A stretch of DNA of 64,000 bases from Malacoraja senta (Eukaryota). Under the pieces are notes generated by a model. That model was not told the DNA's origin and searched no databases. It saw only the letters and a program-made list of their open reading frames with translations. The DNA is taken from positions 5,272,001 to 5,336,000 of the forward strand of contig CM075994.1 in the NCBI GenBank assembly GCA_038087875.1. The letters are read 5' to 3'. How positions within the stretch are numbered: position 1 is the stretch's first letter; each line of letters opens with the position of its first letter. Made by a program: the position numbers and the translations under genes. Below, in pieces: positions 9,458 to 64,000 of this stretch.

Positions 9458-9493
9458 GTGATGCTTTTAGGTCATCTTTACAGGTGGCCAATT
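9458..9493 (-). CDS. Micro-exon candidate, 36 nt, phase 1-1 (xLATCKDDLKAS)
   Basis: Acceptor tattcgttttgcag, donor CAC|gtaatt; open in phase 1. Confidence 0.55.
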
Positions 9494-10884: not shown

Positions 10885-11585
10885 TTGGTTTGAAGTAAAA
10901 GGGCACTGCAAATGGTTGTTTGGGGGGTTTTGGGTTGAGGTTAAAAGGCACTGCGAAAGGGTGTTTGTGGGTTTTGGGTTGAAGTAAAAAGGTACTGCAA
11001 AGGGTCCTTTGGGGGTTTGGGGATGAAGTAAAAAGGCACTGCAAAGGGTTGTTTGGGGGTTTTGGGTTGAATTAAATAGGCACTGAAACGGGTTGTTTGG
11101 GGGGGTTTAGAGTTGAAGTTAAAAAGGTACTGCAAAAGGTTGTTTGGGGGGTTGGGTTGAAGTAACAAGGCACTGCAAAGGGTTGTTTGGTTTTTTTGGG
11201 TTGAAGTAAAAAGGCACTGCAAAGGGTTGTTTGGGGGTTTGGGGTTGAAGTAAAAAGGCACTGCAAAGGGTTGTTTGGGGGGTTTGGGTTGAAGTAAAAA
11301 GGCACTGCAAAGGGTTGTTTGGGGGTCTTTGGTTGAAGTAAAAAAAGGCACTGCAAAGGGTTGGTTGGGGGTTTTGGGTTGGTGAAAAGGCACCGCAAAG
11401 GGTTGTTTGGGGGTTTTGGGTTGAAGTGAAAATGCACTGCAAATGATTGTTTGGGGGGTTTGGGTTGAAGGAATAAGCCACTGCAAATGGTTGTTTGGGG
11501 GTTTTGGGTTGAAGTAAAAAGGCACTGCAAATTGCAGTTTGGCGGATTTGGGTTGAAGTATAAGGCACTACAAATGGTTGTTTGT
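10885..11585. repeat. 44-bp minisatellite, about 16 copies
   Basis: Unit TTGGGTTGAAGTAAAAAGGCACTGCAAAGGGTTGTTTGGGGGTT. Confidence 0.95.
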
Positions 11586-11964: not shown

Positions 11965-12470
11965 GGTGGTTTCACCCTGCTTGAAATGGTATGAAACTGC
12001 ATATGAATGTGGTGGCCTTGCACCCTGCATGAAATGGTATGAAACTGCATTAAAATGTGGTGTCGTTGCACCTTGCATGAAATGGTATGAAACTACATTT
12101 GGATTTGGTGGCCTTGCACCCTCCTTGAAATGGTATGAAGCTGCACTTGAATTTGGTGGCCTTGCACCCTGTTTGAAGTTTTATGAAACTGCACTTGAAT
12201 TTGGTGGCATTGCACCCTGCTTGAAGTGGTTGGAAACTGCACTAGAATTCGGTGGCCTTGCACCCTGCTTGAAGTGGTAGGAAACTGAACCTGAATTTGG
12301 TGGCCTTGCATCCTGCTTGAAGTGGTATGAGACTGCACATGAATTTTGAGGCCTTGCACCCTGCCGGAAGAGGTAAGAGCCTGCACTTGAATTTGATGGC
12401 CTTGCACCCTGCTTGAAATGGTAGGAAAATGGAATTGAATTTGGTGGCCTTGCACTCTGCTTGAAATGGA
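11965..12470. repeat. 48-bp minisatellite, about 10 copies
   Basis: Unit GGTGGCCTTGCACCCTGCTTGAAATGGTATGAAACTGCACTTGAATTT. Confidence 0.95.
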
Positions 12471-12920: not shown

Positions 12921-12956
12921 CTGAAGTTAGATCTTGTGCTTTGTTTGCATCACATT
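12921..12956 (-). CDS. Micro-exon candidate, 36 nt, phase 1-1 (xCDANKAQDLTS)
   Basis: Acceptor cgttttgtttgtgcag, donor CAG|gtaaca; phases 0 and 2 contain stops. Confidence 0.62.
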
Positions 12957-14700: not shown

Positions 14701-14727
14701 CCTTTTCTAACTTTTCCATATCATCCT
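14701..14727 (-). CDS. Micro-exon candidate, 27 nt, phase 1-1 (xDDMEKLEK)
   Basis: Acceptor tatcttgtgctttgcag, donor AGG|gtaggc; only phase 1 open; resembles 25705-25731. Confidence 0.62.
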
Positions 14728-17260: not shown

Positions 17261-17296
17261 CTGTTTCGATATACACGTCCAGCAGTGTTTGCAGTG
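17261..17296 (-). CDS. Micro-exon candidate, 36 nt, phase 1-1 (xLQTLLDVYIET)
   Basis: Acceptor tcttcatttttttcag, donor CAG|gtatta. Confidence 0.55.
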
Positions 17297-19586
17297 CTGA
17301 AAAAAATGAAGATCGGCATACTTTTAGTTGGCACTGCCACCGAAACGCATAATGCAAAACAACAAACAAAAAAAAACAAATGATATGACATGTGCGAATG
17401 ATATGATGCAGGTGGTGATGCTCCCACCTACCGCTCTCTCATAATTCACGTTGTAAGGTGTTATGAGAGCACCCGGGCACTTCAAAATGCTGCATGCCAT
17501 CTATTTGCGAGATGATGATGTGATGGTAAAAATGTATGTGCTGTGGAGTACGTGGAATGCCATTAATGAAAACGGCATGGGTGCTTTGATTTTTGAGTGT
17601 ATTGTCGGAGTTGCATAATTTCAAGTACATGGTAATACCCCATCACACATTAGACTTTCGGGTCAAGAACGATGGAAAGGTTGCAACGTTCCAGAAAGTG
17701 TATCATTGAACACAGGATGAATTTCATCTGCTCTAGTAATCCATAATTTGTGGTTTTCCTAGTTCTTTATAGCGAGTGTTGGAAACGCAATATTTATGAT
17801 AGGTTTGAACGATCGTGACACCAGAGAACACCAAAGAAAATTGGGCAGTTTATTTGTTCTTGTTCAACATGGTTCTCCTCCAGCATTGCAAGGTAAGGGG
17901 CGATTTGTCAGTGCCAACGAAGACTGAATTCATTCATCCCATTTTGATGATTTGCAAGAATGGTGCCTGCCATTTGGGATAAATTAATCGATAAGATTCC
18001 GCAAATTATTTTATTGATGGCGGCTGACAAAGGAAAAGATAATCGCACTTGTCATTCGTCTCTTCACATGCTAATGTTTGCAAACCATGCACTTATGATT
18101 CCTGGGCGTATCCCTCTAAACGTTCGTCACTCACGACTGACCCCGTCCCCATCCCCACCTACACACCTTTGTGCAACCACCATTTGATCACAACAAGTAC
18201 CTTGACAATCTTGAGAGCTTGATAAATTCAATTTTATCGCTAGCACCAATTCAAGCGAATTCCATGTAAAATCAATGTTGGGTGCTATGCTCACAGTTTA
18301 AAAACAGAAATCCTCATCAACATTTTGTCTGATGAATCTTAACAACTGCATTAATATCCCCGTTCCCTTACGCCCTTGTGTTCTAGTGCATTCTGAGAGA
18401 AGTTGCGTAAACATTTACGCAAACCAAACGCCAGCCTCATCTTGTACACATTTGCCATGGCCAATTTGTATCTACGACGTAATTGGTCATATATCATATC
18501 TTAACTATATACTTTTAAAACTCTCTGGCTGTCGTCCGTCTGTACGTCTGTACGTCTGTACGTCTGTACGTCTGTACGTCCAACGTTCTGCTTGACTTGT
18601 CCCGCCTTTGATACCGCCCCGCGCCCGCGCGGCGCGCGGAAACGCCGATATTTTTTACCGTTTCTAAAGAGGTTACGTTTATCTTTACGAATAGACGATC
18701 ATGATTAAATTTGGTCGAGTTTACGTACGCTTTTTAAAATAAAATACCTCCCCCCCCCCCAAACCAAATATTTCAAAATGTTTAAAAAAACAGCTCAGCC
18801 GTAGAATGTTAGTAAAGATTCCGTTGTGTGATGTCACAATGCACAATGGTCACAGATGTCCAATCGAAATGGACCAATTTACATATGCCTGTGCAGCAGC
18901 AACAGCACCAGCCCCTCCCCCCCACCCCGCAGCCTGCGTCGAAGGGCGTCGTCACGTGTGTGGCAATAGAGTAAGAGGATTGGGGTTGATAGGGATTGGG
19001 TAACAGATGGACTGTCCCTACCCCTCCTACTTCAACACTCCCTCCCCACTATCGCCTCTCTCTCCTCTCCCCCTCCCTCTCCTCCCACCCCCTCCCACCC
19101 CCCTTCACCACCCCTATTCACCCCCATCTCCCACCCACCCCCTTCACCTCTCTCTTGCTCCACTCCCTGCTACACCTCTGCCCCTCACTCCCCACTGTTC
19201 CCACCTCTCTCCCTCCCCCTCCCTCTCTCCCTCTCTTCCCCCTACTCCTCTCCCCTTCCCCTCATCCCCTCCCCCCTCTCCCCCCTTCCTGCCCTCCCGC
19301 TCTCCTCCCACTCCAAACTCTCCTCCCCATCCCTCTCACACACCCTGATCTCCTCTCCCTCCCCAATCTCTCCCCTTTCCTCTTCCCCCTCTCCCCTCCC
19401 TCCCCCTGTCCTCTTCTCTCCCCACCCCGTCTCCCTCTCCCCTCTTCTCTCCCCCCTCCCCCGAGTGTGTTTGGGGTGGTTAGTGTGAGTTTGGGGGGTG
19501 GTTAGTGTGAGTGTGATGCCGCAGCCCACCCATCCCCTCCCGCAAACGCGCGTTGGGTAAACAGCCCGCCAACAGTCTCTCTGTCT

Positions 19587-19801
19587 TTAAGACGGAACTG
19601 CAGATGCTGGAAAATCGAAGGTACACAAAAAAAAATGTATATCATCAGCGGGTGCAGCAGCATCTATGGATCGAAGGAAATAGGCAACGTTTCGGTAGAA
19701 AACCAGTCTGAGGATGGGCTTCGGCCCAAAGCGTTGCCTATTTCCTTCGCTCAATGGATGCTGCTGCACCCGCTGTGTTTCTCAAGCTTTTATTTGTGTA
19801 C
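19587..19801. mobile_element. Penelope-derived fold-back (inverted pLTR) insert
   Basis: Palindromic arms (GTACACAAA...CAGCGGGTGCAGCAGCATC / GATGCTGCTGCACCCGCTG...TTTGTGTAC); 14-bp TSD CAGTCTCTCTGTCT at 19573-19586 and 19802-19815. Confidence 0.8.
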
Positions 19802-21134
19802 CAGTCTCTCTGTCTCTCCCTCTCTCTCTCTCTCTCTCTGCCCTTCTCTCTTCACAGCCCGCAGCTCAACTCATGAACACCCGCTCAAACCCGCCCCCCT
19901 TCACCTATCTCCCACATCCTCTCCTTCCTCTCTCCACACCCTCCCCTCTCTCCCCCTTCCTCTCCCTCCTTCCTCTCTCCCCCTTCCTCTCCCCCCTTCT
20001 TCTCCACCTTCCTCCTCCCCCTCTTCAATTTTTTTTAATTCTAACATTAAATTTTCTCTCTCTGCCCCCCCCCTCTTGTCGCAGCTGAGAGCTGAAGGCT
20101 ATTCGTCAATGGATAGGGTGGAGATGGGATAAAAGAAGCAAATTAAAAGGGTTGTGATGAGTGTGTGTGTTTGTGGGTGCCAGATTCCCACCCCGCAACC
20201 GTGCTTTGGAGGAAAGGGGGTGGTTAGTGTGACTCAGCGGGTGCAGCAGCATCTTTGGATCGAAGGAAATAGGCAATGTTTCATAACTGAATGTTTCATA
20301 ACCCGCTGAATTTCACCACCTTTTTTGGGTGTACCAGTCTCTCTCTCTCTGCCCTTCTCTCTTCACAGCCCGCAGCTTAACTCATGAACACCAGCTCAAA
20401 ACACCCCCCTTCAACTATCTCCAAAATCCTCTCCTTACTCTCTCCACACCCTCCTCTCTATCCCCCTTCCTCGCATCCCTTCCTCTCTCCCCCTTCCTCT
20501 CCCCCCTTCCTCTCCACCCTCCTCCCTCCCCCTCTTCAATTTTTTTTAATTCTAACATTAAATTTTCACTCTCTGCCCCCCCCTCTAGACGCACCTGAGA
20601 GGTGAGGGCTATTCGTCAGTGGATAGGGTGGAGATGGGATAAAAGAAGCAAATTAAAAAATTAAGATAATATCAAGGGTTGTTATGAGTGTGTGTGTTCG
20701 TGGGTGACAGATTCCCACCCCGCAACCGTGCTTTGGAGCACAGGGGGTGGTTACGACACAGCACCCCCCCCCCCACCCGCAAACGCACGTTCGGTGTCCA
20801 GACCCAACGGGTCTGCACTTGGTCTAGTAACTATTAAAACTCTCGTTGGTTTGTTGGTTTGTAACGGGTTCTATTTCGCGATAATTCTTTTATTTACTCC
20901 TCCACCCTTTGCCGTAACGGAGATATTTTTACATATTCCTGTGGAGTTTTTCCTCCTCCCCGCTTTTTTAAAAGTAAAAAACATCAAAATATTCTAAAAT
21001 CATGCTGCTGCATGAGTCACAAGGCCATCTTACAGATGTCCAATCATAATGGATTGCATTTACATATGATATGACGGGTGTGGGAGATTGGAACCTTCAC
21101 ATGGTCAAATAAGAGCAAATAGAGCAAGTTGTCC

Positions 21135-23140
21135 TAACCCCCTTCCTATCTACCCCTTCCCTCTCCCACCTCTTCCATCTTCACCCCTTCACTCCCCCTC
21201 CCCCCTCCACCTCTACCCATCCACTCCCCATTCCCCTCCACCTCTACCCCTCCTACCCTCCCCTCCTCTCCACCCTCCCCTCTCCTGCATCCCATCCTCT
21301 TCGCTCCCCCTTCCACCTCCCCTCCTCTTCTCTCCCGCGTCCAACTCTCCCTCTTCTCTCTCCCTGCCCTCTCCTCACCCCCTCACTTGCCCACCTCCTC
21401 TCTCCTCACTCTCCCCTCTACACTCTCTCCCCTCTACTCTCTTTCCCCTCTACTCTCTCTCCCGTCTACACTATTTATCTCTCCCTTCTACTCTCTCTCT
21501 TCCCTCTCTCTCTCTCTTCCCTCCCTCCCTCCCTCCCTTCCACCCCGTCCTTTCCACCTTTGCCCCTTTCTCTCTCCCCCCTTCTATCTCCCCACTTCTC
21601 TCCCCCCTTCTCACCCCCTTCCCACCCCCGCTCCTTTCTCACCCTCCTCTCTCTCTCCCTCCTCTCTCACCCCCTCTTCTCTCTCCCCCTCCACTCTCTC
21701 CTTCTCCTCTCCCCCTCCAATCTCTCACTACTCCCGTCTCCCCCTCCAACACCCCTGTCTCCTCTCTCCTCTCTACCTCCCCCTCCCCCACTCTACCCCC
21801 TCCCCTCTAACCCCCTCCCCTCTAACCCCTCCACTCCCACACCTTCCACCTATTATTCTCCTCCCCATCTCCTCCCTCCCCTCTCGTTCACCCCTCTCCA
21901 CCATCCACTACCCCCCTCCACATCTACCCCTCTTCTTCTCTCCCCCTGCACCGCTACCCCTCCACCTATCCCCCAAATCCCCTCCTCCACTTCACTTCCC
22001 TCCAACTCTCCCCCCTCCCCTCTACTCCCCTCCTCCTCACACCCACTCCTCTCCCCCCTCTACTCTCTCTCTCCCCCCTCTCTCTCTCTCCCTCTAATGT
22101 TTCTTTCTCCCCTCTAATCTCTCTCTCCCCTCTAATCTCTCGCTCCCCTTCTCTCTCTCCCCCCTTATCTCTCTCCCCCTTCTCCATCTCCCGGTTCTCG
22201 CCCCCTCTTTCACTCGCCCTCCTCTCTCACCCCACTCCACTCTCTCCTTCTCCTCCCTCTCCCCTTCCAATCTCTCTTCAGCTCTCCTCTCTCCATCTAT
22301 TCTCCCCCATCTCCCCTCCACCATCCCCTCCCCTCCACACACTCTCTCCTTCGCCCTCTCCTCAAGCACCCCACTCATCTTCCCTCCACCCATTCCCCTC
22401 TCTTCTCCCCTCCACTTCCCCTCCCCCACCTTTCTCTACCCCCGCACCCTCCCCTCTCTCCCCCTCCCCCTCTAGTAACCCCCTACCCCCCCTACCCCTG
22501 TCTCCCCTTCACCCTACCCGCTCTCCTCCCCTCCCTGATCCTCAACCCCTCTCTCTCCCTACCCCCTCCCCCTTCCCTACACACTCCTCCGCTACCCACT
22601 CTCTCTCCCCCCTCTCCCCCTCTCCTCTCTCTTCCCCATCTCTCCGCCTTCCATATTTTCCTCTCCCCTGTCCTCACCCCTCTCTCCCCACCCCTCCCTC
22701 ATCACCCCTCTCCTCACCCCTCTCTCCTCACCCCTCTCCCCATCTCCTCCCTTTCTCCCTCCTCCACTCCCTCCCCACTTACTCCCTCCCCCTCTCCCCA
22801 TCCTTCTCTCTCACCCCTCCCCCGACCCATCCCCACCTCCCTCCCCACTTTCTCCCTCTCCCACTCCCCGACCCAACTCTCCCCCTTCCCCTCTCCCTTC
22901 CCCCTATCACTCTCCCCTTCCCCATCCCCCGCTCTCTCCCTTCCCCCCATCACCCCTTCCCCCCCTCCCCTCCCCCTCTCTCCTCCTCTCCTCGCCCCCT
23001 CTCTCCTCACCCTTTCCCCCCCTCACAATATCCCCCTCTCCTCACCCCTCTCCCCATCTCCTCCCCCTCCTCCCTCCCCTCTGCCCTATCCCCATCTCCT
23101 CCTCCTTCCTCTCTCCCCGTCCTCCTTCCTCCCTCCTCCT
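21135..23140 (+). repeat. About 2-kb polypyrimidine (C/T) low-complexity tract; a shorter one lies at 19015-19465
   Basis: Almost all C/T on the + strand; explains the Pro/Ser/Leu and Gly/Glu/Arg pseudo-ORFs. Confidence 0.95.
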
Positions 23141-26734: not shown

Positions 26735-26761
26735 CTGTGGATATGTTCGACCATTCCGATT
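26735..26761 (-). CDS. Micro-exon candidate, 27 nt, phase 1-1 (xSEWSNIST)
   Basis: Acceptor cacgtttccttgtag, donor CAG|gtaaac. Confidence 0.62.
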
Positions 26762-27938: not shown

Positions 27939-27965
27939 CAGAACGTCGTAAAATTGCTTCCGCAT
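27939..27965 (-). CDS. Micro-exon candidate, 27 nt, phase 1-1 (xAEAILRRS)
   Basis: Acceptor actcatccattcacag, donor CTG|gtaaga. Confidence 0.62.
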
Positions 27966-28397: not shown

Positions 28398-28412
28398 CTT
28401 CTTCCGGAGTCG
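28398..28412 (-). CDS. Micro-exon candidate, 15 nt, phase 1-1 (xTPEE)
   Basis: Acceptor gactttactttgcag, donor AAG|gtacgt. Confidence 0.55.
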
Positions 28413-31186: not shown

Positions 31187-31207
31187 CCCTTTTTAGTCTT
31201 CTTGGTA
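31187..31207 (-). CDS. Micro-exon candidate, 21 nt, phase 1-1 (xPRRLKR)
   Basis: Very strong acceptor tttatgtttctcctttgcag, donor GGG|gtatgc. Confidence 0.62.
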
Positions 31208-36315: not shown

Positions 36316-36342
36316 TTAAAACGTTGAATAGTCTCTGAAAAT
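36316..36342 (-). CDS. Micro-exon candidate, 27 nt, phase 1-1 (xFQRLFNVL)
   Basis: Acceptor tttaattatttttcag, donor TAA|gtaagt. Confidence 0.55.
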   Translation of the reverse strand: MFRDYSTF

Positions 36343-38436
36343 CTGAAAAATAATTAAACCGATTTTAAGTTTCCAAAACAAACTGTAAACATGTTATCCT
36401 TACTGTGACACAGAAGGAGGTTAATAACCATAAGGAGCCCAGGCCGCTTCCCATCACAGCCATTCCACCTGTCTCTCCCCCTTTTCATGATGTCTTGCAC
36501 CGATGCAGGTCATTCACCTCGCAAGCACATTCCCTTGCCAGTGATTTATTTGCTCCTTTCCCAGCACCACGGACTCATATACAGTTTTTGTCGGAATTAA
36601 CTGCAGATGCTGGTTTACACCAAGCATATACACACAATGCAGGAGTAATTCAGCGGAACAGGCAACATCTCTGCTGAGAAGGAATGGGTGACGTTTCGTG
36701 TCGGAAAAATCGTCTCGAACCGTAACGTTTTGGCGGATATAAGAACGGCAACCAAGTTTTATGAACTTATTTATTTCAGAAACAACTCCTTGATTTACAG
36801 GTCCTCACAAACACCAGGTCCTCACAAACACGTCTGACCACAACGGTGGTCAGCACACAACTGCGGCGCTAGAGCGAAACCGCGTGAAAAGAGCAGCCCC
36901 TCCCGTTTCACGTGACCGCGGCTTCCGAACGGCGGGTTCTATACCTGCGTGCGCCAGCAGCCGCCGCTACACGCCCCCCCCGCAGAATCCGCAGTACGGA
37001 AACGCACGGATAACCGGACGGTTCGACCGGAACGCGTAGTCCGAGGTCGCGGGAGGAGCGTAACAGTAGGGGCCGGCAAAACAGAACCGGAGGGGCGCGA
37101 CAAACGTGAACGAGGGACACGCGTAACGGAGGGTGCCGGTGAAACATAACCGGGGGTAACAGGTGCAGAGGGCTGCAAAACGGCCTGTGGACGCCTTCTA
37201 CGCCGAGGAGTGGCCACCGCCACCGGGCTATCCTCTTCACCGTAGGCTGGCTTAAGGCGGCTGACGGAGACGAACTCCTCCCTGCCACCCATGTCCAAAG
37301 TGACGTCGAGGTACCAGTCCTCAGCACCCTGCACGGACGTTCGTACACCGGCTGTAGCGGTAAGCGGTGAGCATCCCTACGAAGGAAAACATAAGCACAA
37401 TCCCGTAACATAGTAGGCACATGCACCGCGGACGACCCGTGTCGGGAAGTGGGAACCGGGACCAACACGCCCGCTCGCTAGCGAACGTCAGCTAGCACCG
37501 CCGAAGCCGGGACCTCCTGATCACGGGTGGCGGGGGGTAAAAATCCCAGGTACCCGCAAAGCCGAGCCATAAACCAGCTCGGCCGAGGAGGCGTTGAGGT
37601 ATTCCTAAGGCCTAGTTCTGATGCCTAGGAGAACCCAGGGCAACTGGTCAACCCAATCGGGGCCGGTGAGGCGGGCCTTCAACGCCGACGAGGTGTCTAT
37701 GGAAACCTCAACTAAACATTTCGACTCCGGATGATACGCAATGGTCTGGTGCAGCTTCGCGCCGTACAGCTGCGCTATACCACACCACATGGAGGACGTG
37801 AACTGGGTCCCACGGTCGGTAGTAATGTCTGAAGGGACCGCGAAACGAGCGATCCACTAGGACACAATGGCCCGTGCTCAAGCCTCAGCGGAGGTATCAG
37901 TTAACGGTATCGCCTCCGCCCACCAGCTGAACCTATCTACGATAGTTAGCAAGTGAGTAGAACCACGCAAACGCGCAAGGGATCCACCAGGTCGACATGG
38001 ATGTGCAGGAACCTGCCGTCTGGAACAGCGAAATCCTGCATAGGCTGACGCACATGCCTCTGCACCTTGGAAGTCTAGCAGGCGATACAAGAGCGGGCCC
38101 ATGCTGCGACTTGCTTTCGTAACCCGTGCCAGACGAACTTGGCCGCGACCAGGGCAGAGGTGGTGCGAATGGACGGGTGAGCCTGGTTGTGGGTGGTGTC
38201 GAAAATGTGACGACTCCAGGCAATCGGGACAACAGGGCGTGCTATCCCCGTCGAGACATCGCAAAGGACCCGCACGTCGGCGGCGCCGCAGGGCACCTCA
38301 GCCAATTTAAGGCCAGATTCAGCATTGCGGTAATCGCCCTGCCGGACTCAGCCCGTTGGGCTGCGGCCAGCTCCGCGTAATCCACACCTAGGCTTAAAGC
38401 GGAAACCTCAGGGGTTGCCGGACGGGACAGCGCGTC

Positions 38437-40258
38437 CTTACAGAAAGCAGGGTGGGAAGGAGTCCTTTCAGGAAGCAGGGTGGGATGAAGAGGAGTCTAG
38501 ATAGCCATGGGAGTCAGTGGGTTTATTGTGGATGTCGGTCAGAAGTCTATCACCTGCGATGGAGATAGTGAAGTCAAGCAATGGTAGGGAAGTGTCGGAA
38601 ATGGTCCAGGTATATTTGAGTGCCGGATGGAAGTTAGTGGTTAAGTGGATGAAGTCAGTCAGTTGCGTGTGGGTGCAGGAGGTAGCCACAAAGCAATCGT
38701 CGATGTAGCGGAGGTAGAGGTCTGGGATGCGGCCATGGTACGCCTCGAACAAGGATTGTCGCCGTAGCCGACAAAGAGGCAGGCATAGCTGGGGCCAATG
38801 CGCGTGCCCATAGCTACGCCTTGTATTTGGAAGGAATGGGAGGAGTCAAACGAGAAGTTATTCAGGGTAAGGACCAACTGCGCTAGGCGGAGGAGAGTAT
38901 CAGTGCACGGGTATAGGTTGATTCTCGGGTCGAGGAAGAACCGGAGGGTTTTGAGTAAATCCTGGTGGGGGATGGAGGTGTAGAGCGACTGGACGTCTAT
39001 GGTGAAGATGAGGGGATGGGGGCCTAGAGAATAGAATTCCCGCAGACGAAGGAGAGTGTCTGAGGTACACAAAAATGCTGGAGAAACTCAGCGGGTGCAG
39101 CAGCATATATCGCGCGAAGGAAATAGGCAACGTTTCGGGCCGAAACCCTTTAGAAGGGTTGCCTATTTCCTTCGCTCCATAGATGCTGCTGCACCCGTTG
39201 AGTTTCTCCAGCATTTTTGTGTACCTTCCATTTTCCAACATCTGCACTTCCTTCTTTAACAACAGAGTGTCTGAGGTGTCTTGAATATAGGTAGGGAGGG
39301 ATGTAAGCAGGGGGTATAGGATGGAGTCAAGATATGTGGAAATAAGTTCGGTAGGCCACGAACAGGCAGAGACAATGGGTCTAGCGGGACAGTCAGGTTT
39401 GTTTATTTTTGTGGAGAAGGTAAATCGGACCGTGCGGGGCTGGGGAACGATGAGGTTGGAGGCTCGGGGGGGGGGGGTAGTGAGCCGGTGTGGATGAAGT
39501 CAGTGATAGTGCTAGAGATAGTGGCCTGGTGCACGTCTTTGGGGTCATGGTCCAGGGGTAATTAGGAGGAGGTGTCCGAATGGTGGCGCGTGGCCTCAGC
39601 TTTGTAGATATCGACGGGCCAGACTACCACGGCACCTCGTGTCGGTGGATTTGATAACACAGTCTGGGTTGTTGCGGAGTGAGTCGATGGCTGTACGTTC
39701 AGTGGGGGAGAGTTTGGAGTGAGACAGGGGAGTGGAGAAGTTGAGGCGGTGGATGTCCCGCCGGCAGTTTTGGATAAAAAGGTCCAAAGTCGGAGGGCCA
39801 CGAGGGGGGGGGGTCAACGAAGACGGGAAAAGGGATCATCAATAGGGGGCGAGGACTCCTTCCCATGTAAGAACGCTGTGAGCTGATCTCGCTGTGGCTC
39901 AGCACTTCAACACCCCCTCCGATTCCGAATCCGACCGCTCTGTCCTGGGCCTCCTCCATGGCCAGAGTTAGCACCAACGGAAATTGGAGGAGCAGCATCT
40001 CATATTCCGCTTGGGAAGTCTGCACCCTAGAGGCATCAACATTGAATTCTCCAATTTCCGGTGGCCCTTGCTGTCTCCTCCCCTTTTCAGCTCTCGCTCA
40101 GACCTCGGGCTCTTCATTTTTCCTTTCTTCTCCCCGCCCACCCCCCCCCCCCCACCATACACCAGACTGAAGAAGGTTTTCGGCACCAAACGTTGCCTAT
40201 TTCCCACGCTCCATAGATACTGGTGCACCCGCTGAGTTTCTATTGCACTTTTGTCCAC
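38437..40258. mobile_element. Penelope-like element with internal inversion: RT on minus (38437-39873), GIY-YIG C-terminus plus pLTR on plus (39874-40258)
   Basis: DVQSLYTSIP, GVAMGTRIG, YLRYIDDCF, KPTDSHGYL on minus; VAQHFN...RKLEEQHLIFRLGSLHPRGINIEF on plus. Confidence 0.9.
39067..39263. mobile_element. Penelope-derived fold-back insert within the Penelope RT
   Basis: Near-perfect palindrome; 14-bp TSD AGAGTGTCTGAGGT at 39053-39066 and 39264-39277. Confidence 0.85.
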
Positions 40259-41751
40259 CATACATTCTTATCCATTCGAAAAGGCCGAAAGGGGTGATGG
40301 TGGCCGTCCTAGGGACGTCTTCGGGATGGACCGTAATCTGATTATACCCGCGGACGAGCTGGACCTTCGAGAAGAAGTTTGGGCCCTCCAAATATGCAGA
40401 GAAATCTTGGATGTTCGGGATTGGGTACCGATATGCCGTGGTTATGGCGTTCAGACGCCTGTAATCACCACAAGGTCTCCAGCCCCCGGACGCTTTGGGC
40501 ACTATGTGCAGCGGGGAAGCCCAAAGGCTATCCGACAGCCGGACAATCCCCATGTCCTCCATAAACTGGAACTCGTCCCATGCGATGCGCAGTTTATCGG
40601 GCGGGTGGCGGCGCGCGCGGGCGTGAACCGGTGGGCCCTCGGTGGGAATGGGATGGACCACGCCATGACAGGGCCCGAACCGGGGCGTGAGCAACACTGG
40701 GAATTCAGTGACAAGTGCTGCGAAAAGTTGCTGGATCTCAGCTACCTCGTCGAGTTGCGGTTGGGGCGTGGACGGGTTGCGCGGCTTGGCAGGGCACAGT
40801 TCCGACACTGCAACCATGATCCCGCCTCGCACATCGACCAACAGGGAGAACGGGCGCTATAAAACTGCCCACAATCTCGGAGTGGCGACGTCAGCAACGG
40901 TGACCTTCCACCTATACGGTAGGAGTCGAAATTTAAGTCCAGGATCCGCGTACCGTAAGTGCGAATATCTCTCCCGTTGACGGCCGAGAGGACGGGTCCT
41001 ACCTTACCGACGCGGGTATCTCGGGCGGTCGGTAGCAGGATGCTGGCTATGGCACCGGAGTCGACCAGGAAACGGTAGCCGGAGTTGCTATAACGGACGT
41101 AGATGCGTTCGTTTGTGCCGTTCGCGTTCGCCTCTATGGGCGATCGGCCGAGGCATTTCCCTGAAATGAATAGGGGCTTCGGCATCTTCGGGCTTCGGTA
41201 CCGTAGCGGAGATGGTCGTAGCACCAACGTCGTAGGCTGCACACCTCCGGCAGCGCCGATGTTCTTTCAGCGCTGATCTAGACTTGCTCTTCCTCCCGAT
41301 GTCGTCTCGGTTGCACCCGTGCCGTGACGGGGGAGCGGCTGAAGGCACAATTGTCCTACCGTCTGTGAGCCCACAGCTCGTGTGCTCTCTATGCGAGCTG
41401 CTGGGAATCGCTGAAAACAGCCCCGACGAGCATCAGGCGAACTTCGTCGGGCATCTGCTCTGGGAACGCCTGTTCGAAGAGCAGACATGGGCGGTGCCCG
41501 TCCATCAGGGCTAGCATCTTAGCCATGATGGTGGATGACCGCCGGTCGCCGACACTGTCCATATGCAGGATCTTCGCCGCTCTGTCTCTACGGCTGAGAC
41601 CGAAGGTGTGCAGCAGGAGGACCTTCAAACCTTCGTACTTAGCGATCGTCGGTGGGTCTGTGATGTAAGGCATCAGCCTCGAGGCACAGTCCTGTGGCAG
41701 AGCTCCTACCACATGAAAGTACTTCGTGTCGTCTGCAATGTTGCGGTGCAG

Positions 41752-42818
41752 GTGGAGGCCGGTGACTAGTGGGGTGCCTCAGGGTTCTGGGTTGGGTCCA
41801 CTGTTGTTTGTCATGTACATCAATGATCTGGATGATGGTGTGGAAATTGGATTAGTAAGTATGCAGATGATACTAAGATAAGTGGTGTTGTGGATAATGA
41901 AGAAGCTTTTCAAAGTCTACAGAGAGATTTAGGCCACTTGGAAGAGAGGGCTGAAAGATGGCAGATGGAATTTAATGCTGACAAATCTGAGGTGCTACAT
42001 CTCGGCAGGACAAATCAAAACAGGACGTACATGGTAAATGGTAGCGAATTGAGGAATGCAGTTGAACAGAGGTATCTAGGAATAACTGTGCATGGTTCCC
42101 TGAAGGTGGAATCTCATGTAGATATGGTGGTAAAGAAAGATTTTGGTGTGCTGGCCTTATAAATCAGAGCATTGAATATAGAAGTTGGGATGTAATGTTC
42201 AAATTGTACAAGGCATTGGTGAGGCCAATTCTGGAGTATGGAGTACAATTTTGGTCGCCTAATTATAGGAAGGATGTCAACAAAATAGAGAGAGTACAGA
42301 GGAGATTTACTAGATTGTTGCCTGGGTTTCAGCAACTAAGTTACAGAGAAAGGTTGAACAAGTTAGGTCTTTATACTTTGGAGCGCAGAAGGTTAAGAGG
42401 GGACTTGATAGATGTCTTTAAAATTATGAGCGGGTTAGACAGAGTGGACGTGGATAAGCATTTCCTTTTGAGAGTAGGGAAGATTCAAACAAGGGGACAT
42501 GACTTGAGAATTAAGGGACAGAAGTTTAGGGGTAACATTAGGGGGGAAGTTCTTTACTCAGAGAGTGGTAGCTGTGTGGAATGAGCTTCCAGTGGAAGTG
42601 GTGGAGGCAAGTTCGATGTTATCCTTTAAAAATAGATTGAATGGGTATATGGACGGGAAAGGAATGGAGGGTTATGATCTGAGTGCAGGTAGATGGGACT
42701 AGGGGGAAGTAAATTAAAAAACAAATAATAATAATTAAAAAAAATGTGTTCGGCACGGACTTGAAGGGCCGAGATGGCCTGTTTCCGTGCTGTTATGGTT
42801 ATATGGTTATATGGTTAT
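41752..42818 (+). mobile_element. 5'-truncated CR1 (family B) inserted in Gypsy gag
   Basis: [27 protein letters not shown]; (TATGGTTA)n tail; gag sequence continues on both sides. Confidence 0.92.
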
Positions 42819-43674
42819 AATTATGCCTCAAAGTGGGCGAACCGCAACTGAGGTTGTTCCGGCCAAAACGAAGGTAATTTGAAGCCCTGTGAGCCCTGCC
42901 TCGTGTCGGCAGATTCTGAGGGATCGTAATCTTCCTGCATGATCTTCTTTGTCTAACGTCGGCTAGACAGGTCGGGGTCACCAATATGGCTGATGTAAGA
43001 ACGGCAACCAAGTTTTTATTAACTTTTTAATTTCAGAAACAACTCCTTGATTTACAGGTCCTCACAAACACGTCTGAGAACAACGGTGGTCAGCACACAA
43101 CTGCGGTGCGAAAGCGAAACCGCGCGAAAAGAGCAGCCCCTCCCGAATCACGTGCCGCGGCTTCCGAACGCCTGGTTCGATACCTGCGTGCGCCACCAGG
43201 CGCCGCTAGAACGTCACCAATATCGTCTCACCAGAATGCTGCCTGTTTCGCTGAGTTACTTTAGCATTTTGTGTATATCATTTACAATCAACCTGTCTCT
43301 CGGATGTGTGATGAATCGAGAGTAACCGCTAGAAACATAAGCAGTCACGTGGAGAGGGTGAAAGATCGACAAAACTGCAATTCCCATGGCCAAACCTGAA
43401 ACCGGGTTCCCCTCCGACGCACCACCATTAGTGGATATTTGTCGATTAGTTCATCAGTCGTTTGCAAATTACCATACATAACTGCCACTTTCCCACTCAC
43501 AATGCTACACAATATTGTTTGTTATTTCCTATTCCCACATAAAATTCTCCTCCATCTCCCTGAAGGGAAGCATTTATTTCGCCTCAGGCTGTGCATGTTC
43601 GAATTGGAAATTGCCTCCCTCCCCATTTTTTTTATCTTTCAGTTCACAGTTGAAATATTTCCTTCCATGTTCGA

Positions 43675-44786: not shown

Positions 44787-44822
44787 CTGATTGGCCGCCA
44801 ACAGATTTCTTTTCTCTTGGAA
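44787..44822 (-). CDS. Micro-exon candidate, 36 nt, phase 1-1 (xPREKKSVGGQS)
   Basis: Acceptor tgttttaacattacag, donor CAG|gtatat. Confidence 0.55.
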
Positions 44823-55843: not shown

Positions 55844-58800
55844 TGTAATGATTCGAGTCAAACACATATCAAGATACAACATGTGTTTATTATATCTACT
55901 TACAGTATCGGTCTGCAGGACATTACATTTCCTAGCAGCTACTCATACTGAATGGCGTAAGCAAGTTCTTTGTAATATTATCGCATATTAGGCGTAGCAA
56001 CTAATTACAAGCACTACAATTGGTTAGTAGGAAATAACCAATCTACATACATCCTTTTAGAAACAAAAATAAAGCATCGATACGTGGGAACATGTTGGCT
56101 AAGCATTAAAGGAAGCAGAATGTTAATAACTCATATGGAGACGTTTAGATAGTTACACAAAATCACCGTATCTAATGGGTGGCCTTCTAACCCGTCCGGC
56201 ACATGTGCGGCACGAATCCGCTTCACCTCTTTTCCCCGGAGACGTTACCGGGGAGGGAACTGGGGATGTGACCGGGGACCCGTCGTGGCGGAGTGGTTGT
56301 GAAATAGGCGACCTAGGCGCGAATGCGGCGGGGTGGCCGCGGTGGAAACGGTCTGTGATAGTGGAGCAGCAGGACCAGTAGTGTGAGCGTAAACAAACCG
56401 CGAAACATCGGGATGTAGAGTCGCAGGACGCGTTTAATTCTCTGGACTGATATGTTGCGGTTGCTCCATTCGCTTTAACCAGGTAGGAGCGCGGTTCTTT
56501 GTCATGGCCGTGGATGTGATCCAAACGGCCATAGCCCTTGTTGGTCTGGAGGCGAAGCACCTATCCACTGGTGAGAGGTTTAAATGGCTTACTTGGTTTG
56601 TCGAAAAAACGTTTTTGTGTAACGCGTTGGAATTGCAGTTGTTAATGGACCGCAGACGGAGAACAAACTTGCGGCTGCAAAAGCCGCTGGGACACAGGCA
56701 GGGGAGGACGGGTTTGCCGAGACATCAGTCGCTACGCTGGGGAATCCAGCATGGAATCCTTTGTAATGGTCCTTAATAGAGCAGATCTAGGTAGACGTCA
56801 GATTTGGCAAGATATGAACTGTCCATTAGTTGTTTTACGCGTCGGTCGGCTCGTTCGGCATTTCTGTTGGACCGTGGAAACTCAGGGCTGCTGGTAATAT
56901 GTCGAAAGCCGTTTTGCAAAGTTTTTGAATAGCTGGCTGGCGAACTGACTGCCGTTGTCGGACGGAAGACGTGCATGGCTGCCGTGCACGGAGAAATGCC
57001 GCTGCAAATTCTCGATAACCGCTTCAGATGCAATGGTTTACAGAGGATCGATGTCAAACTAGTCCGAAAAGGAGTCGACAGGAACCTGGTAGTGTTGGCC
57101 ATGCCATTCGAATATATTGGTGGATAATGTGGACCACGGTAGAGAGGGAATCGTTTGCGGCAGAAGGGGCTGCTTCTGCTGATGTGGCGTCAGGCTTTTG
57201 CAGACGGCGCAGACTTCAGTTTTGTCACGTAGGTACTTGGTCATACCAGGCCAGTAAAACAAGGTTTGCGCCCGTTGTAAGGTTGCCTCCACGCCGGGGT
57301 GGCCCCTGTGGACGGCTTCGAAGTACCGGAGGTCAGCTGGGCAAACTGCCTTATGGCCCTTGAATATAATCCGTACTGTAACACCAGTTCGTCGCGAACC
57401 AGGAAGTATGGGCGGATTGCGAGCGAGGTGTTGTGTTGTTTATCCGGCCAGCCGCGGCGGATGACTGCGGACGGCAATTGGAAAGTCTCGTCAGCAGCCG
57501 TGTGCTCTGCCACGCTGCTTAAACAATCAGTAGGAACATACGACACCTTCACTACTGTGAACTGATCCTGTTCAGTGAGTTGTTGTTCGCTGGTTGTACG
57601 TGGGGCCCTTGATAGCGTGTCAGCTGTGTGCATGTCCTTGCCTTTTATATAGACAATGTTGAAATCAATCCGCTGCAGCTGCGTCATCATTGTAGGCGTA
57701 CCGGAGCAGCGATAATAGGTTTAATCAGATTAGTCGTCTGTTTCTATAGTCACAGACTTTCCAAAATAAAATGTTTGAATTTTGTGCAGTAGAAAACCAC
57801 TGTGAACAATTATTTTTCATTGTGGGCGTAACGTTATTCAGTGCCGGTTAGTGTGCGAGAGGTGTAAGAAACAGGCTTGCAGTCGCCATCGGTAGTGGTC
57901 TGCAGGCAAGCAGCGCCAAGTCCGCACTAGGACGCATCGCAGGTGAGCGTTACTGGTAACTCCAAAGCAAAGTAGGCGAGAGCAGGTGCGCTAGCCGGCT
58001 ACAACTTGAGGATGTCGACAGCTATTTGGTGCTGCGGATACCAGGACCATGCAGCGCCTTTGTGCGTCATTTCCCGCAGGGTGGGTAGATATGTCGCTGA
58101 GGTTGGGAATACATTTCGCAAGGCAGTTGACCATTCCAAGGAACCTTTGTAGACTCGCAACGTCAGTAGGAAGCGGCATCTCGTTGATAGCTGCAGTTTT
58201 TTGATGGGTCTGGTCTGACACTATAACTTCTGAAAACGGGTCCGACATAGGTAACTTCCGGGGTCTCGAAACTTGCACAACAGGGGATTTAGTGTGAGCT
58301 CAATTTCTTTGGCACTGTGCAGTATTTTCTTCAGATTGGCATCATGTTCAACCGAATCGCGCCCGTAGACGAGAATGTGATCAACAATAATGGTGCATGT
58401 ATACTCAGCAAACAATTTTTCCATCGTGCGCTGGAAAAGTTCGCTGTCAGAGTTGATGCCAAAGGGCATTCTCAGCAATTTGTAGCGGCCGAAGGGGGGT
58501 GCCGAACGTAGTAAGATTGGACGAGTCTGGGTCCAGTGGAATCTGCCAGAACGAGCTTTTGGCATCCAGAACGGAGAACACCAATGCCTTGCCTATTTGA
58601 GTATAAACGTCCTCTACTGTTCGCATAGGGTAGTGCGGGCGTTTGATAGCAGTGTTGAGATCTCTGGGGTTTATGCAGATACGGATTTCCTCCTTGTTTT
58701 TTTTCCGTTACGACCAACGTGGCGGAAACCCAGTCGGACGGGTCAGTAACTTCAGCAATAACACCCATGGAGAAAATCAGCTTGAGGTCATTGTGTGCCC

Positions 58801-60512
58801 TGTCACGCATGGCATGCAGAACAATATGTGGTGCTCGAACCACATGAGTGACGTTGGGATCAACGACAATGTGGTACTTGAGGGGCAACTTGCCAAGCTC
58901 GTTGTTAAACATTTCTCTGCATTGGGAGATTATTTGCTGAGTGGAGCCCTCAGCGAGAACGAGTTGATGGACAACGCAGCCAAAGTATACCAGGCCTAGA
59001 TCGTGGCATGCATTGATACCGAGCAGAGTCTCAGAATACCCCTTGTCGATATAAAACTTTAGGGTATGTGGCTGCGAGTCTATGGTGTATTTTAAATTAG
59101 TCTGTCCAAGATGGTGCAGAACATTTCCCCCGTAGACTCGAAGTGTGGCCAAGGCCTTTTCAATAGATTCAGCATTACGATTTTTTTAGAACTCTGATAA
59201 AAGATGACGTTGCATTTCGCGCCAATATCAACCTTAGCAATCACAGGCCCGTTATTCACAAGCATGGTTACCTCAGTGTCAAGTTGCTCGTTAGAGGAAG
59301 GGAGGAGAGAGCGGATGGCTGAACTGCTAATGCTACTTTCAGAAAGCTGAGCGGAGGATGGCAAGCCAGGCTCTTTTTACTCCTTATCAGCAAGCTCATG
59401 TTGTAACAGGTGCCAGCACGCCTTTGAAGGGAATTGAGTCGCACGGGAAAGGCAACATCTTGCAAAGTGGATTGATTTCTTGCAGAAATTACAGGTTTTA
59501 CCATAACCAATACAGTAGTATGGAACCGTAGCATGAAAATAGTTTAAATTAGGACAACGAGCAGCAGGCCTTCTCTGCTGCCAGGCCGGTGAAGGCTGGG
59601 AACGGCTGTTACGAGAGGAGGTGTCTGTAAGATTGACACTATATTGCGAACGCTGACCAGAGGTCACAGACTTAGTGTGAGAAAATGTTATCTCAGCAAT
59701 CCGACAGGCGTGCTCGGCTTGGTTAAGGATCAGGTCAGTGGTACGGAGCAGTTCATCCCTTAACTTGTTATTAAGCTTAACTCCAACAATCTTGTCACGG
59801 ATGTTCATCGGACAAATCACGAAATTGGTAGAGTGTAGCCATGTGTTTAAATCGCTGATAAAACATTCTATCGGTTCATCAATCTGTTGCATACGAGCAT
59901 AAAACTTAATACGTTCGATAATTTAGTTCGAGGGAAGGTCACACAACAGTCTGAACTTTGCAAGTAGGACGGAAGGGTCATCAATCGTCTCTACAGGCTC
60001 TAGGATCTGACCATTCGCATTTAAAACAACAGGCACTAATATGAAACTGTCGGCACATTTCATTGCCTCTGGGCCAGCTAGGTTGAGTAATACAGAAGCA
60101 CGCACATCAGGAGGATCGTTGCGATGAACGATGCGAACATAGTGAGTATAGTCACGCTCGAAAAGACGCCAGCGTTCAGCAAAGTCAGAGTCAAAGATCA
60201 GAGGACTAGGACGGCGAGACGAGTTTGCCATGAGAGAAATAATGGCACATAAACAAAATTTAAAAAAACGATAAACGTGAAGGAGTAGGTAACACTCACT
60301 CTCTCACACAAGGTAATAAGTCGAGTCAAACACATATCAAGATACAACACATGTTTCTTAACCTACTTACATCATCGGTCTGCAGGATACTACAGTTCCT
60401 AACAGCTACTCATAATGAATTGCGTAGGCAAGCTCTTGGTACCATGAATCGCATATGAGGGCGAGCTACTTACAAGCACTACAATCGGCTTGTGGGAAAT
60501 AATTAATCGACT
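55844..60512 (-). mobile_element. Gypsy LTR retrotransposon (Mag-like), old and heavily frameshifted
   Basis: Diverged LTRs 55844-56047 and 60312-60512; 5-bp TSD ATACC/GTACC; gag MANSSRRP..WRLF and zinc-knuckle remnants (CNFCKKSIHFARCC); protease KVDIGAKCN; RT RMPFGI, IVDHILVYG; ADTLSR; integrase FYWPGM, TSSPEFPRSN. Confidence 0.92.
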
Positions 60513-61051
60513 GTACCTTCAGACGTCTGCAATGTGAGTGTGAAATCAGACACGCAGAGAACATGGGCAAATGTTTTTTTAGCATACAATATGCTATTTC
60601 TGCACAAACCGTGATTATTTTAAGAGCATATATTTCTAAACACGTTTTGTTATGTTTGATCCTCCATGGGTAGTAGACAGCTTTGTAAGTACGATCATTT
60701 CCATCCAATTTACCCACAGAAACAGAAAATGGTGAATCGGGATGCATTTTTAATGGAAAGCAAACCTTATGTATATTTATCCACTTCATATCACTTTACG
60801 ATTTATCGAAAATGTCTGTCGAATGTGCAGCTTTTGATGCCCACGACAGAGTCAGTGAAATATCAGGTAAGAATAGAATGTTGAACAGCAATATAACGCA
60901 CAGGCACGCGATAATTATCAAGACACTTCACATAATATGTTATTATATAAAATGTGAGGGTATGGTCAGTTAAGTATATTTTTGGGGTTTTAGAAACCCC
61001 GATCAATAATGTCAGTCTTAAAATATAAAAGCACGCTATTGTCGAACTGAC

Positions 61052-61178
61052 CTTGTCGTCCTAAGTCTCTACAAGTTAACGTGGTTGGGTCAAAGCCGTC
61101 TGAGGAACAGGCCGGGATAATACAAAGTGCAGTGCCAATTTCAAATATACATACAATGTTCTTCTGGCTCTTAAACAT
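61052..61178 (-). CDS. Putative first coding exon (exon 61183-61052): signal-peptide-like MFKSQKNIVCIFEIGTALCIIPACSS then DGFDPTTLTCRDLGRQ, ending in phase 1
   Basis: Acceptor attcttatgcttccattag, donor AAG|gtcagt; only one frame open; basic N-region, hydrophobic core, small residues before a plausible cleavage site. Confidence 0.55.
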
Positions 61179-61753
61179 AAGATCTAATGGAAGCATAAGA
61201 ATACGGATTGCTTTCATTGTGAGGAAAAAAAACCCTCTCTGAATGCCAATATAATGGCCTGTGTCATGAAGAGATTAGTAGACGTTGTTTTGCAAGCAGT
61301 AAATATATTTTTCCGAAAGGAAGTTTTTCTTTACAGAAATAAAGATGACACTCATGGCCAGAATGATTGTGTCATCAATGTTCTTATCTCTAAACTGCTC
61401 AGACAGATACATTTTGACATTGTTTTCCAATGTTTGTACTTTTGCAATTTTGATGTGACAAAAATAGATAATTACAAATAAAGCACTCACAAAATTGTGG
61501 CCACGTGTGTCGTATTTATTGTTCAATCATTTCTGCCGGGAAGGAGGGGGGGGGTGGGTAGATAATGTGTAATATCCCCTTCCTTCATACTCCATTTAAT
61601 GAACATTATGTCTAATTTTAAAATGAAAAAATATCTATGATGATGACTTGAACTGCCTCGCAAATAAGGTCAAACTATAGGGAATACACAGATTTACAAT
61701 TCCCCCCATCCTCCAGATATCTAAATTATGTTGTTAAGAATCTATTCATCGAT

Positions 61754-62076
61754 GGGCGGCACTGTGGCGCATATGTAGAGTTGCATCCTTGCAGCGTTTA
61801 AAGCGCCAATGAGCCGATTTTTATCACGACTACAGGTGCTATCTGTACATAATTTGTTCATTCTCCCCGTGACTGCGTGGGTTTTCACCGAGATCTCAGT
61901 TCTCCTTCCACACTCCAAGCACGTAGAGATTTGCACGTTAATTGGCTTTGTGTAGGTGTACATTGTCCATAGTTTTTGTAGAGTTGTGTTAGTCTGCGGG
62001 GTTCGATGGTCCGTGCGGTGTCTGTGGGCCGAATGGCCTGTTTCTGCGATGCATCTTAAATTCAACTAAAGTAAAA
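61754..62076 (+). mobile_element. tRNA-derived V-SINE (HE1-like)
   Basis: GGGCGGCACTGTGGCGCA head; TTCTCCCCGTGACTGCGTGGGTTTTC V-domain; GGGCCGAATGGCCTGTTTC tail shared with CR1 family B. Confidence 0.85.
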
Positions 62077-62230
62077 TGTGGATTTACAACAAAGTAATGT
62101 AATTGTCTTGGAATAAATTGCACATGGTAGTTTAAATCGAATTTAGTCACAAAATACTGGAGTAGCTCAACGGGACAGGCAGCATCTCTGGAGATAAGGA
62201 ATGGGTGACGTTTAGGTTCGAGACCCTTCA

Positions 62231-62263
62231 GTCTGAAGAAGTGTCTCGATTCGAAACGTCACC
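62231..62263 (+). ncRNA. Minimal hammerhead-ribozyme-like motif in a Penelope pLTR (degenerate)
   Basis: CTGAAGA-A-[GTGTCTCGATTC]-GAAA-CG-TC; core boxes intact, stem II mismatched relative to the family consensus GGGTCTCGACCC. Confidence 0.5.
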
Positions 62264-63398
62264 CATTCATTCTCTCAATGTATGTTGCCTGTCCCACCGA
62301 GTTACTACAGCATTTTGTGTCTACGTTTAATTTAATTGTCTTCTGGATTTATAAACAGAGCAAAATTCATTTATATTTCAAAATTTCTTCCTCATTAGTT
62401 TAACGGTTAAAATATTATAGCTGACAGACAGAAGACCCATACGCGAGATGCCTTGCTGTTTCAACATATAAGTAATCACCTTCGTCATTGTTAGATAATT
62501 TCATTTTACCAGATTGAATATCGTGTTCATTTCAGCTCGATCGATGGAGTGACATTATATTGGATATCGAATAAACTTAATTGCTAAAATATGTACTAAT
62601 ATGTGCTTGGAGTCTGGAAGGAGAATCGTGAAGGGGATAAAGGGAACAAATAAAATATCGACGTCTTTACCCGTTGTCCGAATTAAATAGAAATGTTGAA
62701 TTGTTGTGGTTGCTGAATGTTATTGTCACATAATGTGTCCATTGGCTTCCATTAATTATTTTACCCGAAATCTCTACAGTCCTTTGTACCTAGTGGCACT
62801 TCGATAAACCGAAAAGTTTGTCAAATCAGTGCTTTGCCATTTCCCAAGTTCATCCATTATAATTGACATTTATTAATCGTCCAGTGGTTGCCAACTTATT
62901 ATTGGAAGGAATCAAACGATTAAATTAATTAATGTCGAATTAATGTGATTGAATAAACAGTTTATTTTATGCAAACGTAAAATTATATATATATGACGTA
63001 AACCCTAATGTTTCCAACGATATTATGTTTTTGTTCTCCAAATATCAAGCTTCACGATTATTGCATTCTTAACATACAAGCTTCCATCTGAGTATTTTAC
63101 GGAATGCCGCAAGATCTGATGCAGTGGGGTCAATTCGCGCATTTAACAGCTTGGAAAGTTAAGTCGAGATGTCAACTGAAGTACGCCATTTAATTGCAAT
63201 AGAAACGTCACAGTTGATGAACAGTTTCATTTGGGTCTAACTTCAAACATAAATTAATTCAAGAGCACCTATTGTGTCCAAGTTCATCACCTCGTTCTAA
63301 TTTGATCAAGAGGACTTTTGCTGGTTCCTATTGGAAGCTGTCACCCTTCTAAAAGGTATTTGTAATCCCGCCATGTATTAGAGAGAAATGTCACTCAC

Positions 63399-63444
63399 CT
63401 CTGGGTGAAATCTTTTTAAGACTGACTTGCGGTGAGCACTCAGT
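63399..63444 (-). other. 46-nt exon candidate, probably 5' UTR (or a phase 0-1 coding exon TECSPQVSLKKISPR)
   Basis: Strong acceptor tgttttcttgtttgcag and consensus donor GAG|gtgagt; contains no ATG. Confidence 0.6.
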
Positions 63445-64000
63445 CTGCAAACAAGAAAACACAATATTTGTCAACTAACATTTTTATCGCTGTCATTGCA
63501 AATTAAGCTAACAATGCGATAAGCTTGGCATTGGAGCAGCCTCCGCGTTCTTTGGCGCTCAGCCAAATGATAAGCAAGTTTGAGAATAACAATCGTGACG
63601 ATAACTAGCTACACTGTTAGCGGGAAAGGCTGATTTGGACGTTATGCTTCGCGCCAAAAGGAAACGAAGTGATGTGATCTGACAGTATGTTTACATATTC
63701 TGAACGCCGACATCAGTAAAACCAATAGACTTAGATGCCTGGTGCTAATGCAACACGTTTTATTAATGAGCCCAGCCGATAGGAATCGCAACTGAATTGC
63801 AAACAGGCATTCCAAAAATAAAACAAATGCACAAAGTAATAGAGTAATTCACTGGGTCAGACAACATACATCGAGAACAGGGAGAGGTGACATTTCCGTT
63901 CGAGACCCCTCTTCAGACGGATTCTGGTTCAGCTTAAAGAAGGTTTCGGACCCGAGACGTCACATAAATTTGTTCTCCAGAGATGCTGCCTGAACACTAA

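Follow-up and report, generated by a model that had tools for sequence, protein, structure and literature searches.

The minus strand at the right end of the window (the whole stretch of 64,000 nt that was analysed) would, on the reading we favour, carry the untranslated leader and the cleaved signal peptide of a secreted precursor encoded by micro-exons, with its promoter beyond 64000. We give this reading, which is drawn from the DNA alone, a probability of about 0.55; the odds of all readings are a weighing of the tests and were not computed. In the proposed model, transcription would start to the right of 64000, a first exon outside the window would splice to 63444, 63399 would splice to 61183, and the ribosome would start at 61178. 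Signal peptidase would then cut before Asp27, ten phase-1 micro-exons would supply the next ~96 residues, and a furin-type convertase would remove the basic pro-segment (residues 27–70) at R-x-K-R. The chain so released would be acidic, probably helical, with two Cys, and would run past 9458.

The layout of the leader is ordinary for genes of secreted proteins and will not surprise a specialist, and the micro-exon gene downstream of it is the more interesting object. The practical value of the reading is that it gives the probable 5′ terminus and the probable secretory fate of an elasmobranch gene made of exons of 15–36 nt, with at least one paralog. Exons of this size are of the kind missed by gene finders.

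The 46-nt exon and the region upstream

The candidate 5′ features are in the following positions of the window:

63399..63444, minus strand: exon of 46 nt (E1), AG...GT flanks, without ATG, likely 5′ untranslated
61184..63398, minus strand: E1–E2 intron (long form), 2215 nt, with SINE-like pieces
61052..61183, minus strand: long form of the second exon (E2), 132 nt, made of 5 nt, the ATG, 42 codons and a phase-1 donor
61176..61178, minus strand: candidate start codon in a weak context (C at −3, T at +4)
61101..61178, minus strand: predicted signal peptide, codons 1–26 by a crude rule, with cleavage before Asp27
61052..61099, minus strand: short form of E2, 48 nt, phase 1-1, acceptor AG at 61101–61100, which drops the ATG and the signal

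Splice sites were scored with approximate matrices; a third matrix was derived from 11 of the gene's acceptors. The control sequence was the 32,228 bp of non-repeat DNA, delimited by eye and taken on both strands. Judged by these scores, E1 is almost certainly a real exon, because its acceptor ranks second of 3464 AG sites and its donor second of 3606 GT sites (non-repeat DNA, both strands, approximate matrices). A branch-like motif stands at 63474, 30 nt ahead of the acceptor. The first-pass annotation had described 63444–63399 as an exon with textbook splice sites and no ATG, and its coordinates are confirmed. The absence of an ATG is uninformative in itself, as 40% of random 46-mers are without one. 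That annotation had missed that no stop interrupts E1 in the reading frame of E2 (E1, if coding, would begin in phase 0 and end in phase 1). It had also named transcripts whose frame runs on upstream into a known gene as evidence against its reading; the frame was examined at the DNA level, and E1 does read stop-free into E2. Stretches of 51 nt are free of stops by chance in 42% of cases, and the openness of E1–E2 is compatible with coding and non-coding alike.

The strong E1 acceptor implies an exon further upstream. No good donor was found in 63445–64000 (the best scores 1.1, against 7.4), nor any TATA match upstream of E1 within the window. The CpG observed/expected ratio upstream of E1 ranks 50th of 304 windows, and, since depletion is absent throughout the window, CpG content gives no clue to the place of the promoter. 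The earlier proposal that the promoter lies beyond the right edge is consistent with this lack of a good donor, a TATA box or a CpG peak, and it follows only if the E1 acceptor is used. On the favoured reading, E1 is likely an internal 5′-untranslated exon.

Contigs of two runs of one study, possibly from the source sample, behave as genomic DNA. Those of both runs match the window with 0–3 differences and contain no exon joints; being genomic, they are silent on expression. Three further pieces, with ~85–89% identity overall, are paralogous to the E1 region:

63392..63604: paralogous contig, ~88% identical, with 26 differences and 2 gaps, the latter both within the acceptor tract
63726–63851: further paralog piece, with 19 differences
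63138–63260: another paralogous contig, with 13 differences

Over E2, no paralog contig was found among the contigs listed from the same DNA runs. Eighteen of the 26 differences are listed; three of these fall in E1, and all three are non-synonymous in the E2 frame. Their density (3 in 23 nt, a tiny number) matches that of the upstream intron (15 in 130 nt). The comparison leans slightly towards a non-coding E1, because its listed changes all alter residues at an intron-like density. Since this region has a paralog, the gene is probably one of a small family.

The 132-nt exon and its signal-like peptide

The coding part of E2 comprises 127 nt, that is, 42 codons and one nucleotide, which gives the phase-1 donor. 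This donor ranks 41st of 3606, and the acceptor at 61183 only 98th of 3464, with a branch-like motif ahead of it at ~61223. Everything reported before for 61183–61052 was found again: the ATG at the sixth base, K-x-x-K, a hydrophobic stretch with one Glu, and A-C-S-S before D. The n-region is basic (K3-x-x-K6, net +2). The h-region covers residues 8–24, with a core of 14–17 residues and a mean Kyte-Doolittle value of 2.2–2.4 over 11–17 residues, and has Glu13 inside it. In the c-region, Pro22 (−5), Cys24 (−3) and Ser26 (−1) form P-A-C-S-S, followed by D27, so that a helix breaker and small residues are both present.

The control frames for this peptide were the 165 stop-free, ATG-started frames of 42 codons found at 1337 ATGs, and the signal rule was a crude one, set post hoc. 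Seventeen of the 165 are as hydrophobic as the E2 peptide, six pass hydrophobicity, basic n-region and (−3, −1) site, and one passes when a Pro/Gly breaker is also demanded. When the residues of the E2 peptide were shuffled, 64 of 5000 shuffles passed all of the h, n and c rules. By these counts, the signal-likeness of the predicted peptide is modestly above chance. The ATG is at the third codon position of the E1–E2 frame, which counts for the leader model. Further 5′, the genomic frame stays open for 32 codons ahead of the ATG (61184–61274) and contains in-frame ATGs at 61196 and 61217, in what is presumed to be intron.

The predicted micro-exon chain and its product

Ten micro-exons are predicted downstream of E2, all on the minus strand:

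44787..44822, minus strand: 36 nt, phase 1-1, weak acceptor, picked by eye
36316..36342, minus strand: 27 nt
31187..31207, minus strand: 21 nt, R-x-K-R convertase-type motif (model residues 67–70)
28398..28412, minus strand: 15 nt
27939..27965, minus strand: 27 nt
26735..26761, minus strand: 27 nt, one N-glycosylation sequon
17261..17296, minus strand: 36 nt
14701..14727, minus strand: 27 nt
12921..12956, minus strand: 36 nt, one Cys
9458..9493, minus strand: 36 nt, one Cys, weak donor, first picked by eye

The two strands were compared for short exon candidates with the thresholds fixed in an earlier exon scan. In non-repeat DNA, the length is a multiple of three in 13 of the 16 minus-strand candidates versus 4 of the 13 on the plus strand; over the whole window, the counts are 17 of 27 and 14 of 44, respectively (Fisher p = 0.014). 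Of the 13 minus-strand candidates whose length is a multiple of three, six contain stops in phase 0, one in phase 1 and four in phase 2. These counts support the phase of the micro-exons, with which the phase-1 donor of E2 agrees, as the first-pass annotation had stated. Joined together, E1, E2 and the ten micro-exons give 155 codons without a stop, while the other frames have 7 and 11; the result is partly circular, the exons having been partly chosen for openness and two of the ten first picked by eye.

Counted from the ATG, the model protein is 138 residues long: the signal (1–26), a basic part (27–70, net +5) and an acidic segment of 68 residues (net −12) that includes Cys116 and Cys131. 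The R-x-K/R-R motif arises in 877 of 10000 shuffles. Helical periodicity in the last 54 residues falls short of significance (666 of 5000 shuffles reach it), as does that of heptads. Because shuffling yields the motif and the periodicity this often, convertase processing and helicity are to be taken as predictions. The micro-exons are symmetric in phase 1, so any of them could be skipped in frame. A search with 17 exon-plus-flank queries found no duplicated exon units within the window.

The gene probably continues past 9458; no stop or terminal exon was identified for it in the window. A 68-nt candidate at 8369–8302 (sites ranking 30th of 3464 and 38th of 3606, with an open frame that enters in phase 1 and leaves in phase 0) may follow the chain as its next exon. 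Three more symmetric candidates open in phase 1 pass the exon scan outside the model, at 34697–34662, 31035–30988 and 24368–24327. The first of these was rejected for its GC-rich, repeat-like context. Also rejected was 60526–60517, a 10-nt AG...GT exon-like piece just before an LTR, which shifts the frame and has a stop in phase 1, and is either chance or a dead micro-exon. The other two symmetric candidates were left out as well, together with 28751–28701, 8369–8302 and 7796–7773.

A second acceptor within E2 and alternative readings

An in-frame acceptor at 61099, overlooked in the first-pass annotation, falls in the codon of Asp27, that is, at the predicted cleavage site. Its score versus that of 61183 is 3.8 vs 1.6 in the exon-scan model, 2.4 vs 2.9 in the second approximate matrix, and 1.64 vs −0.85 in the 11-acceptor matrix, where 78 and 194, respectively, of the 1557 background AGs score at least as high. 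The short acceptor is thus ahead of the long one in two of the three scoring models. The long acceptor and 10 of the gene's 11 other acceptors have a branch-like motif ahead of them, against a background of 708 in 1557, and none occurs within 48 nt of 61099. Between the two acceptors, 84 nt keep the phase and contain no stop, for which the chance is about 1/3 × 0.25. Because hydrophobic codons are rich in pyrimidines, a signal sequence can be expected to end in a cryptic acceptor; conversely, a tract of pyrimidines translates into hydrophobic residues. By its scores, the acceptor within E2 is equally good and could leave the signal out.

These scores bear on an alternative that we consider unlikely but worth keeping in view, in which E1 (phase 0 to 1) would join the 48-nt exon, both being internal and coding, the ATG and the “signal” being intron (a polypyrimidine tract that translates as hydrophobic), and the true start, together with its own signal or anchor, lying to the right of 64000. 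It would account for the open, in-frame E1, for the higher score of 61099 in two models, and for the weak start context and the Glu in the hydrophobic core, and 48 nt suits the size class of the micro-exons (15–36 nt). TNF genes have a 46-nt exon of phase 0-1 followed by a 48-nt exon of phase 1-1, and E1 with the short E2 resembles this layout, for which a literature search gave no confirmation. However, the short acceptor lacks a branch-like motif within 48 nt, the in-phase open frame, the ATG and the tripartite signal would all have to arise by chance, and the listed changes of E1 in the paralog are all non-synonymous.

The leader model is weighed as follows. For it stand the n/h/c-like peptide, the in-phase 84 nt, the branch-like motif, the paralog changes in E1 (tiny number), the lack of an upstream donor, the intact joined frame and the excess of phase-1 introns in signal-peptide genes. 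Against it stand the open, in-frame E1, the short acceptor that is stronger in two models, the weak start context and the Glu in the h-region; in addition, two non-coding exons are needed before the start, the intron lies 16 codons past the predicted cleavage, and the short acceptor sits where a post-signal exon would normally begin.

A broader reading, which we regard as quite improbable, is that the locus belongs to a vertebrate family of rays and skates resembling the micro-exon genes (MEGs) of schistosomes, with paralogs that share a leader, phase-1 micro-exons used in combination, and the acceptor at the signal-peptidase site switching secretion. The form without this signal would then start upstream, with the open 46-nt exon contributing to its N-terminus. 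If both acceptors were used and the micro-exons skipped combinatorially, the gene would be a vertebrate counterpart of the schistosome MEGs with a splice-controlled secretion switch.

The first-pass annotation had called the product secreted or signal-anchored. Secretion is the likeliest reading of the DNA, and the anchor is disfavoured. In C-type-lectin-like or TNF-like layouts, a signal-anchor is followed by an extracellular stalk. Here, a coding E1 joined to the long E2 would turn the hydrophobic segment into a signal-anchor of type II, preceded by a cytoplasmic tail, and the micro-exons would encode an extracellular stalk that includes a shedding site. The unbroken E1–E2 frame, the basic residues ahead of the hydrophobic segment, the phase 1-1 of the 132-nt exon and the R-x-K-R downstream are all as this would predict. 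But the segment makes a poor membrane helix: insertion sums are +1.7 for the best 15 residues and +3.5 for the best 19 (position-independent scale), with Glu and Pro inside, so that the peptide contains no segment of ~19–21 residues favourable for insertion, and this reading leaves the ATG and the c-region of peptidase type to coincidence. We hold the anchor to be improbable.

Much the same standing is given to a pseudogene reading: the locus would have arisen as a copy of a paralogous micro-exon gene, be in decay, and yield no protein. A paralog exists, the core contains Glu, the start context is weak, the 10-nt piece at 60526–60517 has its phase-1 stop, and the introns have received many transposon insertions; still, no stop breaks the 155 joined codons, the splice sites are mostly strong, and introns filled with transposons are ordinary. 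Least probable of all is that E1 is the true first exon, its promoter at ~63450–63850 within the window and its “acceptor” a pyrimidine-rich initiator region: the paralog contig is collinear upstream of E1 (63445–63604, 63726–63851), where CCAAT-, GATA- and E2F-like words occur, but a piece of intron is equally similar in the paralog, so that similarity need not be regulatory, and the E1 acceptor with rank 2 of 3464 and its branch-like motif at −30, the missing TATA match and the CpG rank of 50 in 304 windows all argue against it.

Homology searches and comparison with known systems

The E2 peptide found no candidate in a word-index search of proteins of 77–2000 aa, no family in Pfam, and no usable named match in the Atlas (best score 0.79). 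Its sole phmmer match, among 1.84 billion representatives, was repeat-inflated and gave no alignment by BLASTP; the sole metagenome locus (33% identity) was a chance match to the opposite strand of a 500-aa ORF in bacterial-looking DNA. Rfam returned nothing for 60450–64000. A control search with the intronic reverse-transcriptase frame named ray and shark proteins, with no skate name among the best 120 of 3502 matches; because of this, the blank E2 searches are no proof of novelty. No description of this gene was found in the open-licence literature. Shark complement factor I reportedly has short exons between the leader and a FIMAC domain, followed by FIMAC, SRCR, LDLa and protease domains, and no exon of these domains was noticed in the 55 kb downstream of E2. 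A tail of the butyrophilin/TSBP1 type was set aside, since no basic stop-transfer cluster follows the hydrophobic segment.

Phase-1 introns are over-represented in signal-peptide genes, with a peak in animals at about codon 20 (Tordai and Patthy, and Vibranovski et al., as reviewed in passages of PMC1626468). The predicted leader resembles the ordinary secretory leader of those passages in its signal-like N-terminus closed by a phase-1 intron and in the phase-1 symmetry of the exons downstream. It is unlike that leader in that the intron interrupts codon 43, which lies 16 codons beyond the predicted cleavage, an in-frame acceptor lies at the cleavage site, and two non-coding exons would precede the start (PMC1626468).

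In the part of the gene within the window, coding is, at the DNA level, mostly in very small symmetric exons, namely the ten predicted ones of 15–36 nt. The schistosome MEGs, as the relevant passages of PMC4350168 describe them, likewise have a signal peptide followed by coding mostly in tiny symmetric exons, with products predicted to be secreted or anchored, and alternative splicing is their defining mechanism. Here, the host is a vertebrate (elasmobranch) and the exons of 15–36 nt are spread across 54 kb, so that the likeness to what those passages describe is in layout only (PMC4350168). Membership of the schistosome family was rejected: the best named relatives of the reverse-transcriptase frame are from rays and a shark, and the searches above found no homologue of the E2 peptide. 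The KQY/KHI cassette effectors of the pea aphid, as described in PMC7495047, share, again in layout only, a long gene with a short predicted secreted product, a signal cassette, miniature exons and paralogs; they are from an unrelated lineage, and their expression and secretion have been shown in the aphid.

Closer in lineage is the Bgp (osteocalcin) gene of the catshark, which according to passages of PMC8006282 has 13 exons, the elasmobranch pro-region having grown by the addition of small exons. The two have in common an elasmobranch secreted precursor (here predicted), small exons and a furin-type site; unlike Bgp as described there, the exons of the window contain no ExxxExC Gla motif and no repeats of one another. 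Bgp and Mgp were therefore rejected, as inspection by eye of the window exons (Cys116, Cys131) showed no ExxxExC and no likeness to the supplement-6 alignment of that source. The SCPP genes of elasmobranchs and bony fish also combine a signal peptide, short exons and an acidic mature region, and they are excluded by phase: in the passages of PMC9122587, the first coding introns of scpp genes are in phase 0, whereas phase 1 is found here throughout. Spp2 (cystatin-type) gave no match to passages of PMC13188829, and the TNF family none to passages of PMC6001812. Neither the N-terminal anchor exon nor the C-terminal TNF homology domain of the TNF superfamily lies within the window.

Repeats and composition of the locus

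Repeats make up about half of the window. The reverse-transcriptase frame in the intron (Pfam RVT_1) has as its best named relatives, among the matches listed, proteins of Hypanus (72%), Narcine (68–70%) and a catshark (65%), which makes a batoid the likely host, and the SINEs of the window have a look that we take to be skate-like. CpG is scarcely depleted, at an observed/expected ratio of 0.72–1.10 across eight non-repeat blocks and 0.72 overall (non-repeat DNA, whole window); near-undepleted CpG is unusual in vertebrate bulk DNA.

Within the intron after E2, 55845–60511 is an LTR-retrotransposon-like element with terminal repeats at 55845–56046 and 60313–60511 (82% identical over 203 nt), an integrase zinc-binding match and broken frames. 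A second LTR-like element at 36750–43200 has ends that match by eye, a weak RVT_1 match, and nested LINE/SINE insertions. Minisatellites occur in an intronic repeat element at 10885–11584 (44 nt, 15.9 copies) and 11973–12469 (48 nt, 10.4 copies), and 19000–23140 is ~4 kb of intronic low-complexity DNA, extremely rich in C/T on the plus strand.
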